This document shows, one piece after another, positions 1 to 18,207 of a stretch of 30,660 bases of DNA. The DNA comes from an uncultured Myxococcales bacterium (GTDB lineage: Bacteria > Myxococcota_A > Polyangia > Fen-1088): positions 1 to 30,660 of the forward strand of contig CAZTTW010000002.1 of the NCBI GenBank assembly GCA_964616265.1, written 5' to 3'. Numbering within the stretch: the stretch's first letter is position 1; each line of letters starts with the position of its first letter. Made by a program: the position numbers and the translations under genes. A model generated the notes under the pieces. It saw only the letters and a program-made list of their open reading frames with translations. It made no database searches and was not told where the DNA came from.

Positions 1-1
1 C

Positions 2-730
2 CTTGCCCTCGCCCTTCATGAGCGCCGCGAAGACCTTGCTAGCAGGAATACCCTTCGCTTCGAGCTTCTTGCCGCGCGCAATTTCGTCTTCGACGGCCGC
101 CTTGAACTGCTCGTACGGCACGGCGCCACGAATGGGGCGACCGTTGATGAAGAAGTTCGGAGTGCCCTGCACGCCCATCTTCTTGCCCAGCTCTAAATCG
201 TCGTCGACGCGCTTCTTGGTGGCCGGCGAATCGATGTCCTTCTTGAACTTCTCGACGTCGAGACCGATCTCCTGCGCGTACTTCTCCAAGTCGGGACGCT
301 TCAGGTTCGACTGGTTCGCAAACAATTTGTCGTGCATCTGCCAGAACTTGCCCTGGTTCTCGGCAGCCACGGCGGCCTGTGCGGCCAGCGGTGCGTCACT
401 GTGGAAGGGCAGCGGGTTGTGCTTGAAGAAGATCCGCACCGGGTATTCCTTGACCAGTCGGTCGAGGGTCGGCAAGACGCGGCTGCAGAAAGGACACTGG
501 AAATCCGAGAAGGCGACGATGGTGACGGTCGCCTTGCTCGATCCCCTGGCCTTGCCGTCAAAAGGAACGCACTTGCGCTCGACATCGTCACCCGCGACTG
601 GAGCGCCCGGCGTGGGACACGTGAACTTGGCAGCGGCCGCGCTCCCTCCCACGTTCCAGTTGCCCCGTCCCATGAAATAACCACCGGTGACGGCCCCGAT
701 GGCCAGAATGAAGATGATCACTTTGCGCAT
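2..730 (-). CDS. dsbA: DsbA-family thiol-disulfide oxidoreductase, 3' end runs off the left edge of the window
   Basis: Not in the ORF track (no stop in window). Manual translation from ATG 730: MRKVIIFILAIGAVTGGYFMG (signal/TM)...VTIVAFSDFQCPFCSRV (CxxC at 485-496)...FFKHNPLPFH...GKFWQMHDKLF...GVQGTPNFFING (cis-Pro loop). SD-like AGGAG just upstream. Confidence 0.93.
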   Translation of the reverse strand, partial: MRKVIIFILAIGAVTGGYFMGRGNWNVGGSAAAAKFTCPTPGAPVAGDDVERKCVPFDGKARGSSKATVTIVAFSDFQCPFCSRVLPTLDRLVKEYPVRIFFKHNPLPFHSDAPLAAQAAVAAENQGKFWQMHDKLFANQSNLKRPDLEKYAQEIGLDVEKFKKDIDSPATKKRVDDDLELGKKMGVQGTPNFFINGRPIRGAVPYEQFKAAVEDEIARGKKLEAKGIPASKVFAALMKGEGK

Positions 731-791
731 TGGGTCTCCTTCGACGCTCTCCCGATAAAGTCCCTCCGAAAGGAGGATTTGCTGGCGCTTG

Positions 792-864
<73 letters not shown>

Positions 865-1027
865 GAAGGTCGCTCGTCTAACACGGGCGAACCGTTCTAG
901 CAAGCGCACACCTGTGGCCAACCGGTCTGGCGCCGTCTTCATTCCCTGAATTTCCACCAAAAGATAGGTGGACTTGCGTTGTCGCGGAGCCGGTTGGGCC
1001 TTCCCCGGCAAACAACGTAGCCAGCCC

Positions 1028-1056
1028 TTCCCCCACTGCCGCCGGAGTGCTATCAC
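1028..1056 (+). promoter_or_regulatory. Possible sigma70-type promoter for tRNA-Arg
   Basis: TTCCCC-N17-TATCAC with TG at the extended -10 position, 11 nt before the mature tRNA 5' end; both boxes are imperfect. Confidence 0.3.
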
Positions 1057-1067
1057 TGGCAGCTCTT

Positions 1068-1141
1068 GCGCCCGTAGCTCAACTGGATAGAGCATCGGCC
1101 TTCGAAGCCGAGGGCTGGGGGTTCGATTCCCTCCGGGCGCG
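1068..1141 (+). tRNA. tRNA-Arg (UCG), CCA not encoded
   Basis: GCGCCCG TA GCTC AACTGGATA GAGC A TCGGC CTTCGAA GCCGA GGGCT GGGGG TTCGATT CCCTC CGGGCGC G; anticodon TCG at 1102-1104; A20 arginine identity element in the D-loop; followed by CCG. Confidence 0.96.
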
Positions 1142-1191
1142 CCGACCTTGATCTGCTGATTTTCCAGGAGGAGCCGATACCGCCTAGCACG

Positions 1192-2757
1192 CTACCCGGC
1201 GGCCCCGTCCATCAGCACCATCCCCGCCACCATGTCTACCGAGATTTGCTCCAGAGCTCGTCTGACCGTGCGGCTGTGCACGCCGGAGCGAACGACCATC
1301 ACCACTGCATCCACGGAGTCATGGATAATCGAAATGTCGCCGCTTTGGAGTATGGACGGCCCATCGACTACGACGTAGTCAAAGGCGCAGCGCCAGCGCG
1401 CAATGGATGCCGAGAAGGTTGGACCGTGAAGACCTTCGCCACCGATGGCATCCGGCGCCACGGCTAGAACGTGCAAAGCGGTGGGCCGCAGCTCCGTGGT
1501 CAGCCATGGAGCATCGATCTGTTCCCGGTGGGCAGCCATCTGTGCGTCAAAAGAGCGCACTTGTCGAAGCCCAAAAATCTCCGCCAGCCTCGGGCGACGC
1601 AGGTTAGCCTCGACCAGCAGAACACTGAGGCGACCCGACTCGGCCAAGGCCAGCGCAAGATTGGCAGCACACGTGGTCTTTCCTTCGCCGTCCTGCGCAC
1701 TCGTCACTAGGATCGCACGCGGATCCTTCTGCTCCGCGAGTCGCCGCCGCAAAGCTCGAAACGCGGCTGCTCGTTCGGTGCTCCCATCCATCAGCATGGG
1801 CAGGTCGAGCTCGTCAGTATCCGAAAGCGCGAACGGGGTTGCCTCTATCCGCGCCGGAACCACCCGGTAGTTTGCAGCGAGCACCGCAGGCCGCGCCGAG
1901 CGCAGGGTTGTTGATGGTACTGGTCTTGCTGTCCCAACCGAAATAGCTGTACCCATCGTCGATACAACCGAAGGCGAAGACGCTGGAGACGATACCGCCG
2001 TCGGAATCGATTTCTGAACCGGAATGCCTGAGGCCACAGCCCCGGCACGCGCTCGCACTGCTTCGAGCATCGACCCATCTAGCAGGATGGTCTTTGAGCT
2101 GCCGCTTCCATCCACTTCCTTGTCTTTTGCTGGCGTGGCCGGCTTTGGAGCAGGCTGCGCCGCGGGAGGATCAGGGGATTCTCGACGAATCGCCGGCGTC
2201 ATAGTCCGGACCGGAGCGGACGAGTCGACGGCAACGGTCACCACGGTCGATGGATTTGCTGGTGTGGCCGATCGAGGCATCGTCGCGCGACCGGGTACAG
2301 ATGCGGCCGACGGACCAGACGGCGTCAGGGTCCGCGCCGGCTCAGCTGGGACTGGCACCGCAGCCACTTGGATCGAAGATGGGTTTGATGGAGCCGACGG
2401 CGTCATGGTTCGCGTCAGCGGAAGCGGGCGCCCTCCGGGTGCCGGTGCGCCCGTGGGTGGAGCCACCGAGGGTGGACTTGACGGCGTGACAGTCCGCACC
2501 GGCGCGTCCGATGGCTTGGCTGCAGGCGAGGAATAGGCGGGAGTAGCAGTTCGCACCGGAGGCGATGCTCCCGGTCCCCGCAGACCTGAAAGCGAAGTGG
2601 TCCCTACGCCTTCGGACCCGGACCGAGGCTTCGATGGAGTCGACCCGATGGCTCCACGCGAAGGCACGTCCGGAAGCGACTGGATCACCTTGGAAGAGGC
2701 GGAGCCGGTCGACACGTTCGGGTGCAAGCGCGGATCTTCGATCTTGGGATCAGCCAT
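1192..2757 (-). CDS. Stand-alone CpsD/CapB (BY-kinase-like, probably pseudokinase) ATPase with ~310-aa Pro/Ser/Thr/Ala-rich N-terminal extension
   Basis: C-terminal ~200 aa has AFRALRRRL, Walker A SAQDGEGKTT, A'-like LLVEANLRRP, Walker B FDYVVVDGPS and VDAVVMVVR, as in BY-kinases. No TM segment and no C-terminal Tyr cluster. Confidence 0.88.
   Translation of the reverse strand: MADPKIEDPRLHPNVSTGSASSKVIQSLPDVPSRGAIGSTPSKPRSGSEGVGTTSLSGLRGPGASPPVRTATPAYSSPAAKPSDAPVRTVTPSSPPSVAPPTGAPAPGGRPLPLTRTMTPSAPSNPSSIQVAAVPVPAEPARTLTPSGPSAASVPGRATMPRSATPANPSTVVTVAVDSSAPVRTMTPAIRRESPDPPAAQPAPKPATPAKDKEVDGSGSSKTILLDGSMLEAVRARAGAVASGIPVQKSIPTAVSSPASSPSVVSTMGTAISVGTARPVPSTTLRSARPAVLAANYRVVPARIEATPFALSDTDELDLPMLMDGSTERAAAFRALRRRLAEQKDPRAILVTSAQDGEGKTTCAANLALALAESGRLSVLLVEANLRRPRLAEIFGLRQVRSFDAQMAAHREQIDAPWLTTELRPTALHVLAVAPDAIGGEGLHGPTFSASIARWRCAFDYVVVDGPSILQSGDISIIHDSVDAVVMVVRSGVHSRTVRRALEQISVDMVAGMVLMDGAAG
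2194..2553 (-). repeat. Six dispersed R-[TS]-x-T-P peptide repeats in the disordered N-terminus
   Basis: PVRTATP (R69), PVRTVTP (R88), LTRTMTP (R116), PARTLTP (R142), MPRSATP (R162), PVRTMTP (R184); spacing 19-28 aa. Confidence 0.85.
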
Positions 2758-2937
2758 GTTGTCGGGTCTCGTACTTCGATAAGTTCAGCCATGCTCGACC
2801 GGCCGCAGACCTCGTCAACCGAGGAATGCGCGGCCTTAGGTTAGCATGTCCAAGAATAGCGCATGTTCGAACACGCAACCGTTCTAGAAGAGCTAGCCTT
2901 CCGAAGCTGCCGCGCTACGGACGAGAGACTCGGCTCG

Positions 2938-3249
2938 TCATCGAGCCACCTCACGGATGAGAACCCTGTCAAGATGCAGCAAGCGGAGGATGGCCAGAGG
3001 TTGATCGCGAACGCCATCCACGACCAGATTGCCTCCGTATGCACGGACCACCTTGAACAAAGCCACGATCGCTCCCACGCCCGAGCTGTCGATCAGACGG
3101 AGGCGGGAAAGGTCGACGACCATCTTCGGCGGCCTCTCTTCGCCTACCTGGCTGATGAGCGGTCTGAGCTCGACAACCGAGAGCGCGTCTAGCTCACCTT
3201 CGATAACAAGTACGGAAACGCCATTCTGTGTGCTGAGATGAAAGTGCAT
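2938..3249 (-). CDS. STAS-domain anti-sigma-factor antagonist (RsbV/SpoIIAA-like)
   Basis: VLVIEGELDA...MVVDLSRLRLIDSSGVGAIV with the conserved phospho-acceptor DSSG motif; ~103 aa from ATG 3249 (ORF track extends to 3261). Confidence 0.93.
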   Translation of the reverse strand: MHFHLSTQNGVSVLVIEGELDALSVVELRPLISQVGEERPPKMVVDLSRLRLIDSSGVGAIVALFKVVRAYGGNLVVDGVRDQPLAILRLLHLDRVLIREVAR

Positions 3250-3273
3250 GTTAATAGTCAATAAGAAGAAGCA

Positions 3274-3777
3274 CTAGCTCGCCTTGCCTTCGGTCAGACC
3301 GACGCGATTGGGCCCGTTCCCATCGTCTCCGTCAAGCCGTTTCACAAGTGTAAGAATGTTGGGCGGGCCAGCAGTATATGAAACTTCGTCAACGAACGAT
3401 CGCATGATAAAGACACCAAGGCCCGACTCCGGAAGAGCCTCCAAGTCAGGCGGTGGTGCTTGGAATGGGTCGAAGCTGGCGCCCAAATCACTGATTGTAA
3501 TCCGCATCCAGTCAAAGCTGCTTTCGATCTGCATCCTAACCGATCCGATCTCTCGGCCAGCGTAGCCATGCAAAACGATGTTGTTGTATGCTTCGCCGAT
3601 GGCGGACACCATATGTGCGGTGAACTCAGAGCAGCGCGATGCGTGACTGCGACTATCAGGAATCATCAATTTGCAAGCGGAAGACACTGTGCGCAACACC
3701 ACGTCTCTATATTCGATTCTCCCTGGTACTTCCAGGCGGATGATGTTGCAGCCGTTCGCGCGGGTGAATTCAATCAT
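3274..3777 (-). CDS. RsbW/SpoIIAB-like anti-sigma factor Ser kinase (HATPase_c)
   Basis: N-box AIGEAYNNIVLHGY, G1 ITISDLGASFDP, G2 ESGLGVFIMRSFVDEVSY; ATG 3777 preferred over TTG 3807. Confidence 0.92.
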   Translation of the reverse strand: MIEFTRANGCNIIRLEVPGRIEYRDVVLRTVSSACKLMIPDSRSHASRCSEFTAHMVSAIGEAYNNIVLHGYAGREIGSVRMQIESSFDWMRITISDLGASFDPFQAPPPDLEALPESGLGVFIMRSFVDEVSYTAGPPNILTLVKRLDGDDGNGPNRVGLTEGKAS

Positions 3778-3822
3778 CGTTTCCACTGCCCCGGGACGCC
3801 CTAACAACGAGTTCGCGCAGCC

Positions 3823-4551
3823 GTGAGGACGTCAGTTCGGATTGCCAAGCGGGCATTTGACCTTCTCGCCGCAAGCATTGGGCTGGCGGTGACAGCTCCA
3901 TTATATCCCATAATCGCTGCGTTAATCTACCGAGAGTCTCCTGGTGATGTGTTCTTCAGGCAGCGCCGAGCGGGTCGCCTGCTGGGTCCCGACCCTCGCT
4001 CGCTTCACCATTTTCGTTTCCAAGAGTTCAACATCATCAAGTTCCGCACGATGAAGCTGGACGCTGAAGCCAAGACAGGCGCCGTGATTGCGGCTGAGAA
4101 CGATGACCGAGTCCTCCGAATCGGAAGCTTTCTCCGCCGTACGCGCCTGGACGAGCTTCCTCAGCTTTGGAACGTACTGCGTGGTGATATGAGCCTGGTC
4201 GGACCGCGTCCAGAGCGGCCCGAGTTGATCGGGAACCTTGCACTGGCCATACCCTTCTTCGAGGAGCGGATGCGCGGTGTCAGGCCGGGGCTGACGGGGC
4301 TGGCCCAGGTATCGCTGGGCTACACAGGACGACCGCGTCCCAACAGCAAAATCGAGGCGTACATGAGTTCCCTCACGAACCCGTTCAAAGTGGAGGGTAC
4401 CGAGGGCGCCCTGGCGGATGACATGCGCATCAAGGCGCTCTACGACTTTGCCTACGGCGCAGCCATTGAAGACTTCTTCTCGTTTGTCCGCATGGAAGCG
4501 TGGATCCTTTGGCAAACGCCGTTGGCCGTGCTCAGGAGAACAGGGCGCTGA
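3823..4551 (+). CDS. Small monotopic phosphoglycosyl transferase (Bac_transf sugar transferase, priming enzyme)
   Basis: KRAFDL...FFRQRRAG...IKFRTM...RIGSFLRRTRLDELPQLWNVLRGDMSLVGPRPERP...PGLTGLAQV; catalytic DE dyad intact. Confidence 0.95.
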   Translation: MRTSVRIAKRAFDLLAASIGLAVTAPLYPIIAALIYRESPGDVFFRQRRAGRLLGPDPRSLHHFRFQEFNIIKFRTMKLDAEAKTGAVIAAENDDRVLRIGSFLRRTRLDELPQLWNVLRGDMSLVGPRPERPELIGNLALAIPFFEERMRGVRPGLTGLAQVSLGYTGRPRPNSKIEAYMSSLTNPFKVEGTEGALADDMRIKALYDFAYGAAIEDFFSFVRMEAWILWQTPLAVLRRTGR

Positions 4552-4560
4552 GCTGAGCGC

Positions 4561-5823
4561 CTAGAAGCGCGCGGGGTACTGCGCCTCGACCGTGAACACC
4601 ACCAACTGGCGACGAAATGAGGCGAACGGCGAGGCGCCGACGGCAGAAGATACGGCGGATGCACGTTGGTCGCGAAAGGTGTAGTCGAGGCCATAGGTAA
4701 ACAGGTGTCCCGGCATCCAGCGCAGTCCGAGGTGAGTCGCAAAGACCTTGGCGGTGCCTCCCGCTCCGTTGGCGAGGGCCGAGGCGGAGTCGCTTTCCAA
4801 ATCCGCGGCTGCGAGAAACTGCAGCAGCTCGTACCGATCAAGCGGGAGAGCGATATTTAGGCCGACGAGACTGCGTTGATAGACCGTAGCAACGTAGATA
4901 CTGTCGCCTACGGATTGTTCCGCGCGTAGCCCGACCTCGCGTCCAACACGCCGCCAGAGAATGGCTGCGGATTCTGTTGGAAACACATGCACGTGATCTG
5001 TTCGTAGGAAGAGCACGCCTGCGGCTAGCTCGTGTGTGAGCTCTGCGGTCCACTCGTGTCTCCAGGTCGACTCCAACTGGGCAAACTGGCCGTCGCGGGC
5101 TGCGGTCGTGGCCTGTCCCGCCGTCGTGGGCTGTCCCGCCGTGGTGAGCTGTCCTGCCTGTGTGTTGTTGGTCGCGATGGCGCCCAATCGACCTCGCAGA
5201 CCGCCCGAGTCGCGCTGCCACAGGTGACTGATCGCGGCGCCCAGGATGAGACTTTTGTTCGAGCCCGATCCCTGGTCGCTGCCGAGCGGGCGATACATCC
5301 CGCCATCGAGGGACTGGGCGATGCTCCACGATCCGCCGAGTTGCCAGGAAAAAGCCTCGTCCGCGCTAAGAGACAAGAATTTCTGATCCCCGGCGGGACG
5401 AGGCCCAACCGTCTGCGGATTGGTGGTCGAAGTAGCGTCCAGCATCGACAGCTGCATCAACGCGGCGGATCCCCTCAGAGTGATTCGCGCCGCCGGGCTG
5501 GCCTCGATATCACTCGACAGGCTCAGCGTTTGCGCAAGAACGGAGCTTTGTGTATTCCCCGTCCACGAGGTAGCCATAATGGCATAGGCGATCTGTTCTT
5601 GGGTCAGTCGGCCGATATGACCCAACTCAAGGCGTCCTTGGGCCGTCACAAACCCAGCGGCCGAATGGGCCGTCGCATCCGGCTGCGACGTCGGATTGTC
5701 GCTTGCGCCGACCGAGCTACCCGCAAAGACATGGTACGCAACTTCGGCATGTCCGAAACGTGCCATCCCAAGCAGGATCACGATGAAGGCTGCACTCGGC
5801 AGGGAGGGAAAGCGTCCCATCAT
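4561..5823 (-). CDS. Probable outer-membrane beta-barrel, EpsX/Wzp-like OPX partner
   Basis: Signal peptide MMGRFPSLPSAAFIVILLGMARFGHA|EVA; many amphipathic alternating beta-strand-like segments; ends RQLVVFTVEAQYPARF with terminal Phe; lies in an EPS locus with a short OPX. ORF track start 5865 is probably too long. Confidence 0.68.
   Translation of the reverse strand: MMGRFPSLPSAAFIVILLGMARFGHAEVAYHVFAGSSVGASDNPTSQPDATAHSAAGFVTAQGRLELGHIGRLTQEQIAYAIMATSWTGNTQSSVLAQTLSLSSDIEASPAARITLRGSAALMQLSMLDATSTTNPQTVGPRPAGDQKFLSLSADEAFSWQLGGSWSIAQSLDGGMYRPLGSDQGSGSNKSLILGAAISHLWQRDSGGLRGRLGAIATNNTQAGQLTTAGQPTTAGQATTAARDGQFAQLESTWRHEWTAELTHELAAGVLFLRTDHVHVFPTESAAILWRRVGREVGLRAEQSVGDSIYVATVYQRSLVGLNIALPLDRYELLQFLAAADLESDSASALANGAGGTAKVFATHLGLRWMPGHLFTYGLDYTFRDQRASAVSSAVGASPFASFRRQLVVFTVEAQYPARF
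5102..5155. repeat. 3 x 18-bp imperfect in-frame tandem repeat (AGQxTT x3) inside the barrel gene
   Basis: GCGGTCGTGGCCTGTCCC / GCCGTCGTGGGCTGTCCC / GCCGTGGTGAGCTGTCCT; protein reads AGQLTTAGQPTTAGQATT. Confidence 0.9.
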
Positions 5824-16584: not shown

Positions 16585-18207
16585 CTAGGTCGGCTTTCGG
16601 AGATAGAAAAACGTCGCGTACACGATGAAGACAACCACTACCAGCGCGCCGGCCATCACGGTGTGCAACCGGCTGCGCCGCTGTTCGCGGGGACTATGCG
16701 CGTGAGGAATGCTGACCAAGATAGGAAGGTTGGAACTCGCCTCGAGCTGGGCGCCGCTGCGGATCCGTCCGTCGAGCATGACAAGCGCGCATACGAGCCC
16801 GACCGGCAAGAGCGCGGCCACGAGTAGACCGATCAGGAGGATGTGAAGGAGGCGAATGCTCACCGGCGTCGTGGGCAACTCGGGCGGCTCCTGAACTTGC
16901 AAGCGAAGTCCGCGCTGCTCTGCCAGCTCCAAGGCGACACGCTGTTGCTCGCGGCGCTTGAGCAGCTCCTGATAGATATCTCGCGTCGCCTCGTAGCTAC
17001 GCAGAAGCTCGGCTATGGCCGCATCCTGCCGGACTCGCATATCCGGATCCGGTATGTTGCCGGGGACACCCGGGGTCAACCGCGCTCTCGGGTTACTGGG
17101 TGCCGCCGCGATCTCGGGGGGATCCGAGCGGGGACGTTCTCCTGTGACCGCCGCGATCTTCTTTTGGACTTCTTCAAGCCGCGATCGGGTGGCGCGTTTG
17201 ATGTCGTTCTCCATGGCGACGGCCGTCGCCTGGGCGTTCTCCCGCTCAGCCTTCGCCCGCGTGGCGTCGTCCTGGGCGCGCGCCAGCTCGCCGCGGAGCC
17301 TCTTCACGTCCGGGTGCTCATCGGTGTAGCTGGCGAGGAGTCGGTTGAGCTCGCCCTGGAGCTGCACGACTCGCTCGCGGTACCGGTTTTCTGTCTGTAC
17401 CAGGTCCGCAGAGACCGAGCTGCGAGTACGACCCAACTCTGCAGTGAGCGCGGCCTCCTCCTGGCGAAGATCTGCCAGCTCGTCAGAGGAGACTCGGCTT
17501 GCGCGTGGCGGCGACGTGCCACTCGACGTGTCGCTCGCGAGAGCGCGGATCGTGGGCGAGTGTCGGTGGACGGCACGTGGCATCTCGCTGCTCGGCCCGG
17601 GCAAGCTCACCTCGTGGGCGCGGTCGTAGGCCAACACCTGGTCGTGGATGGTCGCGAGCGTCTTAGAGTATTCCTTGACCTGACCGTCGACGAATTCGAA
17701 GTTGAAACGGCTTGTACTCTCCTCAGGGAGGACACTCTCCCGGATGTAGATATCGGTGAGCTTCTTAGCAAGCTCAAGAGCGCGCTGCGGCTGGGAATCG
17801 GAATAGGTGAGCGTGACGAGAGTGGGTCCGGTTGGGCCCGCCCCCGAACTGCTGATCGCGATGCGCGAGCGGAGCTGCGCGAGGAGCCGCTCCTCGGCTC
17901 GCGGATCCGACTGTGCCCCCCAGCCGCCCAGGGCTGCCAGTTCCCGGAGAATCCTCTTGCTCGTGATGATCTGGTTGACCAACGTGGAGTGGGGGGCCTC
18001 GGCCGTTCCCGTCCCGGGAGCGATGGTGCTTCTCGGCTCGACCAGAATTGTCGAGGAAGCGGAGTACTTCTTCGGCCAGTAGAAACCGACGCCCAGGGTC
18101 GCGAGGGCGGCAACGCAAAACAGCGAGGCGAGCGTAAGAATTCGCACCCGCCCCTCTTTGAGGACGAGTGCGAGGAACTCCTGTATGGGGACGGACTGTT
18201 GCGCCAT
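16585..18207 (-). CDS. wzc: Wzc/GumC-like polysaccharide co-polymerase without fused kinase domain
   Basis: TM1 followed by WPKKYSASSTILVE; long coiled-coil periplasmic region with YTDEHPDVKRL; TM2 followed by LDGRIRSGAQLEASSNLPILVSIP; extra C-terminal hydrophobic helix. Confidence 0.9.
   Translation of the reverse strand: MAQQSVPIQEFLALVLKEGRVRILTLASLFCVAALATLGVGFYWPKKYSASSTILVEPRSTIAPGTGTAEAPHSTLVNQIITSKRILRELAALGGWGAQSDPRAEERLLAQLRSRIAISSSGAGPTGPTLVTLTYSDSQPQRALELAKKLTDIYIRESVLPEESTSRFNFEFVDGQVKEYSKTLATIHDQVLAYDRAHEVSLPGPSSEMPRAVHRHSPTIRALASDTSSGTSPPRASRVSSDELADLRQEEAALTAELGRTRSSVSADLVQTENRYRERVVQLQGELNRLLASYTDEHPDVKRLRGELARAQDDATRAKAERENAQATAVAMENDIKRATRSRLEEVQKKIAAVTGERPRSDPPEIAAAPSNPRARLTPGVPGNIPDPDMRVRQDAAIAELLRSYEATRDIYQELLKRREQQRVALELAEQRGLRLQVQEPPELPTTPVSIRLLHILLIGLLVAALLPVGLVCALVMLDGRIRSGAQLEASSNLPILVSIPHAHSPREQRRSRLHTVMAGALVVVVFIVYATFFYLRKPT

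Follow-up and report, generated by a model that had tools for sequence, protein, structure and literature searches.

A kinase–STAS gene pair beside a priming transferase gene in a Polyangia exopolysaccharide cluster: a candidate phospho-switch on polysaccharide synthesis

Partner-switching modules, which pair an RsbW-type kinase with a STAS-domain protein, are usually annotated as anti-sigma systems. What, then, is the output of such a pair when it lies inside a polysaccharide cluster and has no sigma factor gene beside it? The question is raised by a stretch of 30,660 nucleotides (nt) from an uncultured Myxococcales bacterium of the class Polyangia (GenBank assembly GCA_964616265.1, contig CAZTTW010000002.1, positions 1 to 30,660 of the forward strand; the whole stretch that was analysed is called the window below), in which a stand-alone kinase gene, a gene for a single-domain STAS protein and a divergent gene for a small monotopic phosphoglycosyl transferase (PGT) stand together (Table 1). 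The first-pass annotation of this DNA took the pair for an orphan and suggested that the STAS protein may act directly on the exopolysaccharide (EPS) machinery, with SypA of Vibrio fischeri as the precedent. From gene content and from analogy with characterised systems, it seems slightly better than an even bet that the pair has its output in the EPS machinery, not in a sigma factor, and the PGT is put forward, more tentatively, as the specific partner of the STAS protein.

The evidence that carries this reading is the neighbourhood of the pair. The relatives of the window cluster are all Myxococcota/Polyangia metagenome-assembled genomes (MAGs); 33 related loci were taken from a scan of one genome per species, and their neighbourhoods were counted by tblastn with the window proteins and by maps of open reading frames (ORFs). 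The kinase gene is followed in tandem by the STAS gene in 29 of the 33, and in 22 a small PGT gene is the immediate divergent (head-to-head) neighbour of the kinase gene, with a PGT gene about 2 kb off in one more. In close relatives the gap between the PGT and kinase genes is about 45 bp, and the sequence of this spacer is conserved only among the closest of them; the adjacency itself persists down to 40–50% kinase identity, with the remaining cluster genes rearranged around it. In addition, the triad recurs at three more metagenome loci (L052/L053 and L054), there amid GlmS, pectate-lyase-like proteins and other glycosyltransferases (GTs), and within 8–10 kb of it no gene for a bacterial tyrosine kinase (BY-kinase)-like protein, PP2C phosphatase or sigma factor was found. 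Because the triad is kept while its surroundings shuffle, both in the 33 loci and in these three, the invariant unit is the PGT gene together with the kinase–STAS pair.

The proteins of the pair look canonical in their motifs. The kinase, a single-domain protein, matches Pfam HATPase_c_2 (3e-20, above the cut-off), and its best relatives in the Protein Data Bank (PDB) are RsbW (6m36) and SpoIIAB; its N box (EAYNNIVLHGY), G1 box (SDLGASFDP) and G2 box (ESGLGVFIM) align with those of 6m36 and SpoIIAB, and 24 orthologues all conserve the key residues E62, N66, D97, G99, G119 and G121, so that by its motifs the kinase is catalytically intact. The STAS protein matches Pfam STAS (5.4e-15) and STAS_2 (2.3e-12), with TM1442 and SpoIIAA as its best PDB relatives, and its motif LRLIDSSGVG recurs without change in each of the 33 orthologues recovered. 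The earlier description of intact HATPase boxes, an intact DSSG phospho-site and two genes 24 bp apart is thus borne out, the coordinates and the gap by a reading of the sequence itself. As for family names, the STAS protein belongs at superfamily level to NCBIfam TIGR00377, 'anti-sigma factor antagonist' (56.7 bits, cut-off 53.45), and the curated equivalog models are missed: the kinase scores 49.3 bits with RsbW (cut-off 145) and 35.8 with SpoIIAB (cut-off 135), and the STAS protein 43.1 bits with SpoIIAA (cut-off 114.75). The identical 167-amino-acid (aa) kinase product has been called on 11 metagenome contigs. Moreover, 252 kinase homologues were detected, the best 120 of which show 56–82% identity and are nearly all metagenomic; with so many homologues found, the kinase–STAS observation is far beyond chance. 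The weak hairpin past the STAS stop codon (Table 1) suggests that kinase and STAS genes form a bicistronic unit, and a sigma-70 promoter scan of positions 1000–4800 found nothing. A search for RNA sequencing runs that cover this DNA found none.

A sigma factor was sought in several ways. No sigma-factor domain was found by Pfam in any large ORF of the window or in about 10 kb beyond its left end, and no Sigma70 domain appears in the Pfam-annotated neighbourhoods of the related loci, L052–L054 included. Among 112 unassigned neighbour ORFs (130–340 aa) classified by Pfam, no sigma family had at least two members, families with a single member being counted only among the first 25 listed. RpoE, SigB and SigF seeds, entered by hand and run with no positive control, gave no tblastn or phmmer match in 822 kb including the window. 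That is to say, no sigma factor adjoins any of about 40 related loci, and the claim that the window holds neither a sigma factor nor a PP2C phosphatase is upheld by Pfam, tblastn and phmmer, also over the roughly 10 kb of left extension.

With regard to the phosphatase, no PP2C gene was detected in the window by Pfam on all large ORFs or, there and in the contig extensions, by tblastn with two PP2Cs of the family. The word orphan is therefore apt for the window and its extension, and it does not hold for the family, since orthologous loci carry phosphatases of the (FHA)-GAF-SpoIIE type. In L046, Pfam places a GAF-SpoIIE protein of 430 aa immediately upstream of the kinase, and in L047 an FHA-GAF-SpoIIE protein of 545 aa immediately downstream of the STAS protein. 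When these two SpoIIE proteins are used as queries, 11 of the 33 loci prove to have a SpoIIE-family phosphatase no more than 10 kb from the pair, and 8 of the 11 also have the PGT. Because such a protein adjoins or nears the pair in these 11, the kinase–STAS family appears to have a cognate PP2C. Two MAG contigs carry two pairs each, 50–90 kb apart: one pair lies beside a PGT gene (L013, L015) and the other beside a (FHA)-GAF-SpoIIE gene (L014, L016). Since the two-copy genomes are split in this way, the phosphatase is probably encoded elsewhere in the genome of the window. In Sorangium cellulosum, also of the Polyangia, 13 SpoIIE-like phosphatases, FHA and GAF fusions among them, are mostly unlinked to kinase genes (PMC2887360), so that an unlinked phosphatase is unremarkable in this class. 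The paralogous STAS proteins of the two-pair contigs are alike and nearly identical in the phospho-Ser region, which makes cross-talk between the paralogous pairs plausible. The PP2C-side pairs (L014, L016) were seen to lie inside a second sugar-metabolism locus with a UDP-glucose dehydrogenase, an epimerase and a GT2; a low-molecular-weight phosphatase (LMWPc) domain is encoded at L046 as well.

The gene that stays with the pair encodes an enzyme of the PglC/SypR type. Its PDB matches are PglC and WbaP, it has the re-entrant helix at its N-terminus and, in RLDELPQL, the Asp-Glu dyad, and judged by these motifs the PGT is catalytically intact. It is the sole Bac_transf, or priming enzyme, gene in the cluster, and as the only priming enzyme there it is a logical control point. 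Its C-terminal tail was considered as a docking site for the STAS protein and dropped, since the tail is not confined to STAS-linked enzymes, a Sphingomonas PGT of TIGR03013 also matching over the full length. Public gene calls on identical or near-identical DNA (L001, L007 and L008; window 3700–3950) differ in length, with 166, 200 or 242 aa for the PGT and 112 or 167 aa for the kinase, and the long forms alone retain the re-entrant helix of the PGT and the conserved N-terminus of the kinase. Truncation of both genes in the strain variants L007 and L008 (called 166 aa and 112 aa) was rejected by alignment: over this stretch the DNA of L007 is that of the window, L008 has only a few substitutions, and the gene-caller starts alone differ. 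Because only the long calls retain the conserved N-termini, many database entries of this family are N-terminally truncated.

Among known systems, the nearest by homology is of the Syp type. The best match of the window STAS protein in the plasmid collection is encoded on plasmid p1 of Plesiomonas shigelloides (38.7% identity), in a locus with the order GNVR-GT-GT2-sugar transferase-STAS-x-SLBB-x-SpoIIE. By Pfam the last protein is HATPase_c_2-REC-SpoIIE, which is the architecture of SypE, and on this ground the locus is regarded as syp-like. Its PGT gene lies 18 nt upstream of the STAS gene, and the product, likewise the best plasmid match, is 46% identical to the window PGT over the full length; the only full-length PGT matches in the plasmid records are the Plesiomonas PGTs and one Sphingomonas XrtA-type PGT. 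Loci of the SypA/SypE type share with the window a single-domain STAS protein with a DSSG-type site inside a Wzx/Wzy-type locus that also holds a SypR-like small PGT. They probably also share an RsbW-type kinase domain that phosphorylates the STAS protein, an opposing PP2C and an output without a sigma factor, points that for Polyangia are predicted from gene content. In contrast to the window, where the kinase stands alone, Syp combines kinase and phosphatase in one tri-domain protein with a central receiver; the phosphatase of the Polyangia family is a separate (FHA)-GAF-SpoIIE protein absent from the window, and the phylum is Myxococcota. In the V. fischeri locus, sypA and sypR lie at opposite ends. 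It has been reported that in V. fischeri SypE stands upstream of SypA, which works on an 'as yet unknown protein target' that is not a sigma factor (PMC10120452), and that a sypA sypE double mutant behaves as the sypA mutant (PMC10120452). Two other STAS matches came to nothing in this respect: that on a Vibrio sp. THAF190c replicon was rejected as a syp locus, being a PP2C–STAS pair without a PGT, and that of Pseudanabaena has no polysaccharide context. On a Nostoc flagelliforme plasmid, GT, deacetylase, STAS, SpoIIE and RsbW-like genes lie together.

SypA is no longer the only precedent. In 2026 Harada et al. demonstrated that a STAS phospho-switch directly controls a PGT in Anabaena PCC 7120, where All4160 is an N-terminal STAS domain fused to a Bac_transf domain (PMC13555669). 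All4160 becomes inactive when the RsbW-like kinase Alr3423 phosphorylates it at Ser74, and the REC-SpoIIE phosphatase HenR reactivates it; a second fusion of this kind, All2285, adjoins the gene of another RsbW-like kinase, and the authors term the strategy lineage-specific to cyanobacteria (PMC13555669). The window family resembles All4160/Alr3423/HenR in its stand-alone RsbW-like kinase, its SpoIIE-type phosphatase and its Bac_transf priming enzyme, the coupling in the window being a prediction from tight gene linkage. In All4160 and in the cyanobacterial XssP of pSYSM (NC_005229; STAS at residues 9–99, Bac_transf at 124–310), the STAS domain is fused to the N-terminus of the PGT, whereas the window STAS is a separate protein of 103 aa encoded on the strand opposite to the PGT gene; HenR has a receiver domain where the Polyangia phosphatases have GAF and FHA. 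The window PGT shares 40% identity with the PGT domain of XssP. From the fusion of STAS to PGT in cyanobacteria, an interaction between the separate STAS protein and the PGT is predicted.

On these grounds a mechanism may be proposed. The unphosphorylated STAS protein would dock on the cytoplasmic face of the PGT and permit or activate the first, committed step, in which the sugar is linked to undecaprenyl phosphate (Und-P). Phosphorylation of the first Ser of DSSG by the kinase would turn the pathway off, and a (FHA)-GAF-SpoIIE PP2C encoded elsewhere in the genome would dephosphorylate the STAS protein on a ligand or phospho-Thr signal and so turn the pathway on again. The polarity, with unphosphorylated STAS as the state in which polysaccharide is made, is inferred after SypA/SypE and All4160/Alr3423/HenR. 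A sigma-independent EPS switch is favoured because the triad is conserved, no sigma factor was found, the family includes a PP2C, the genes are homologous to those of syp-like loci, STAS and PGT are fused in cyanobacteria, and the PGT is the sole primer of the cluster. The earlier idea of a direct EPS effector thus keeps its core, supported by triad conservation, the missing sigma factor, syp homology and All4160, and is to be corrected in that the pair is an orphan only locally and the precedent is wider than SypA.

Several points weigh against the EPS switch. The genome is partial, and the sigma search spans the window, the contig extension and the related loci, an unlinked sigma factor lying outside that scope. 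Part of the conserved gene order in related MAGs reflects common descent. In L035, L037 and L038 the pair is linked to genes for a polysaccharide co-polymerase (PCP)-like and a BY-kinase-like protein, with no PGT gene within 10 kb. BLASTP gave no alignment between the window STAS protein and the STAS domain of XssP, and no STAS–Bac_transf fusion was found in the 10 multi-domain proteins scanned by Pfam after an exhaustive HMMER search, drawn from the 150 closest relatives; because BLAST detects no similarity to the XssP STAS domain and no close fusion was found, the fusion argument rests on analogy and on homology of the PGT domain.

The most familiar alternative is a canonical anti-sigma module, in which the kinase sequesters an unlinked sigma factor and unphosphorylated STAS frees it, the sigma factor then transcribing EPS genes or unrelated ones. 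The Bacillus systems RsbV-RsbW-(RsbU/RsbP) and SpoIIAA-SpoIIAB-SpoIIE share with the window family the fold families, the motifs, the kinase-before-STAS or adjacent gene order and a PP2C-type phosphatase with a sensory domain; the closest solved relatives are RsbW, SpoIIAB and SpoIIAA, the catalytic and phospho-site motifs are all canonical, the STAS protein falls in the NCBIfam antagonist superfamily, and Polyangia genomes hold many unlinked signalling genes (PMC2887360). In Bacillus, however, the sigma factor is co-encoded, whereas none adjoins the roughly 40 loci here; the equivalog scores lie far under their cut-offs, the gene that stays attached encodes a membrane enzyme, the PGT, and the two characterised relatives from EPS loci, SypA and All4160, work without a sigma factor. 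This explanation is accordingly considered unlikely. Less probable still, indeed the least probable of all the explanations weighed here, is that the locus works as a true partner switch in which the PGT replaces the sigma factor: the kinase would bind and inhibit the PGT, and unphosphorylated STAS would only pull the kinase off. Such a switch follows the logic of the canonical system, and it is the kinase gene, not the STAS gene, that abuts the PGT gene; yet the sypA sypE double mutant resembles the sypA mutant, which makes STAS the output (PMC10120452), and the cyanobacterial PGT is fused to STAS and not to the kinase.

Alternatively, the target could be the polymerisation and export complex, with STAS or the kinase binding the BY-kinase-like ATPase or a PCP and controlling chain assembly. 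The BY-kinase-like gene begins 180 nt after the STAS gene in the window and follows it directly in L023 and L026, and a more distant clade (L030, L035, L037, L038 and L045) has operons of the order kinase-STAS-X-PCP-BY-kinase-like, in three of which the PGT is missing as noted above. Protein X, of about 340 aa and without a Pfam family, has two transmembrane segments flanking a coiled coil, as in PCPs; it lies downstream of STAS and before a PCP of about 500 aa in these five loci and in L017 and L020, and has no homologue in the window. The ATPase has a Walker A motif (GEGKTT), a degenerate Walker A' (ExN) and a C-terminal tail without Tyr in the window or in any orthologue; the BY-kinase class is marked by Walker A, A' and B and a C-terminal Tyr cluster, and TIGR03018 and TIGR01007 both score below their cut-offs. 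An ATPase without the Tyr cluster would need some other regulatory input, which speaks for this target. Against it, the PGT triad of L052/L053 and L054 has no BY-kinase-like gene near it, such a gene lies within 10 kb in 13 of the 33 loci versus an adjacent PGT in 22, and in the window a terminator-like hairpin separates it from the STAS gene. To our knowledge, no STAS protein is known to regulate a BY-kinase. The BY-kinase-like/PCP assembly complex is thus a less likely target than the PGT, and as an explanation of the locus it is rated improbable, a shade below the unlinked sigma factor.

What is known already and what the EPS switch would add may be separated as follows. Syp and, as of 2026, Anabaena already provide examples of a sigma-free STAS phospho-switch on a polysaccharide pathway. 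New are a three-gene form, free of fusions and with the kinase standing alone, that a second phylum conserves; the different type of phosphatase, GAF/FHA-SpoIIE; and the homology that joins the Polyangia loci, the syp-like loci and the cyanobacterial fusions through one class of PGT. No report was found in the literature of a kinase–STAS/PGT arrangement in Myxococcota or of a link between SypA and SypR. The three-gene form, the phosphatase type and the PGT-class homology, taken in combination, are the reason why SypR is nominated as the target of SypA. A wider proposal, that STAS proteins are general direct post-translational gatekeepers of monotopic PGTs across phyla (fused in cyanobacteria, adjacent in Polyangia, in the same locus in Vibrionaceae), is possible but rather doubtful. 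If it is true, the long-sought target of SypA is the priming transferase SypR, and the regulation called lineage-specific in 2026 is an ancient and widespread control of entry into Und-P-linked polysaccharide synthesis. The comparative evidence suggests that a whole partner-switch family in an uncultured, EPS-rich class is wired to the first enzyme of EPS synthesis; a mechanism shown by experiment only in Anabaena would thereby be extended to a second phylum and linked by homology to Vibrio Syp. For annotation, RsbW/STAS pairs beside Bac_transf genes should not be named anti-sigma factors or antagonists. The finding is genuine and makes biological sense, comes as a modest surprise to a specialist, and is chiefly of value as a directly testable lead.

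Table 1. Positions in the window of the triad, its spacers and the neighbouring features discussed in the text
Feature	Position	Strand	Remarks
BY-kinase-like P-loop ATPase, 521 aa	1192..2757	-	Pro/Ser-rich N-terminus; TIGR03018 3.5e-22, below cut-off; alternative target
Weak terminator-like hairpin	2860..2877	-	About 60 nt past the STAS stop; pattern scan only; 7 pairs, poor T-tract
Single-domain STAS protein, 103 aa	2938..3249	-	ATG at 3249, TGA 2940-2938; putative phospho-Ser in DSSG
Spacer, kinase stop to STAS start	3250..3273	-	24 nt, sequence read
RsbW-type GHKL serine kinase, 167 aa	3274..3777 (stop included)	-	ATG at 3777, TAG 3276-3274
Divergent intergenic region, kinase/PGT	3778..3822	.	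45 bp; similarly short in the closest relatives and L054
Small monotopic PGT (PglC/SypR type), 242 aa	3823..4551	+	Bac_transf 7.7e-48
Protein without family, 434 aa	4561-5865	-	Signal-peptide-like N-terminus; C-terminal end ...YPARF
Short Poly_export/SLBB protein, 264 aa	19617-20411	-	

Other features of these loci were observed in passing. In the N-terminal 320 aa of the BY-kinase-like protein, which are rich in Pro, Ser and Ala, there are six R[ST]x[ST]P repeats (for example PVRTATP, PVRTVTP and LTRTMTP), which look like proline-directed Thr phospho-sites. Among orthologues, the repeats appear only in a frameshifted fragment of L013, in 2 copies. The phosphatase of the kinase–STAS family often has an FHA domain, which binds phospho-Thr. 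As for the pair in other genomes, both kinase and STAS genes are tandemly duplicated at L033 5827-7569, and at L041 10426-10700 the STAS ORF is broken up between three frames, either as a pseudogene or through an assembly error.

The fusions seen among the scanned STAS relatives are kinase–STAS, STAS–SIR2 and TIR-DUF7779-STAS. Near non-orthologous STAS relatives, P0146, P0155, P0161 and P0250 carry fusions to TIR with DUF7779 and to SIR2-like domains. Domains of these kinds are typical of anti-phage defence and of NAD-depleting effectors, and the TIR and SIR2 fusions hint that defence proteins under STAS control exist.

Finally, the window as a whole is a Wzx/Wzy-type exopolysaccharide cluster by its ORFs and their Pfam and NCBIfam matches. 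Besides the small Bac_transf priming transferase, it encodes a UDP-glucose dehydrogenase, GT2 and GT4 transferases, two acyltransferases, a deacetylase, a GNAT-type acyltransferase, a methyltransferase and a Wzx flippase, as well as a PCP at 16585-18207 that resembles the chain-length determinant of XrtA systems (TIGR03007, 2.5e-59, below the cut-off), the short Poly_export/SLBB protein and several proteins without a family. Several metagenome contigs carry DNA identical or near-identical to it. On the left, the cluster is bounded by tRNA-Phe(GAA) at 791-864 (minus strand) and tRNA-Arg(TCG) at 1068-1143 (plus strand), past which positions 1-729 (minus strand) hold the start of a protein of 868 aa in which DsbA/thioredoxin domains are repeated many times. 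To the left of the window, about 10 kb of further sequence encode this multi-DsbA protein, a thioredoxin, a GH113 protein and an ABC transporter. The composition of the window gives no sign of a foreign island. Homologues of the 434-aa protein lie near the triad in many relatives (L015, L017, L019, L020, L022 and L045). A C-terminal end like that of this protein is typical of outer-membrane beta-barrels, and together with the 264-aa Poly_export/SLBB protein it may form a split export pair, an outer-membrane polysaccharide export (OPX) protein plus a porin.

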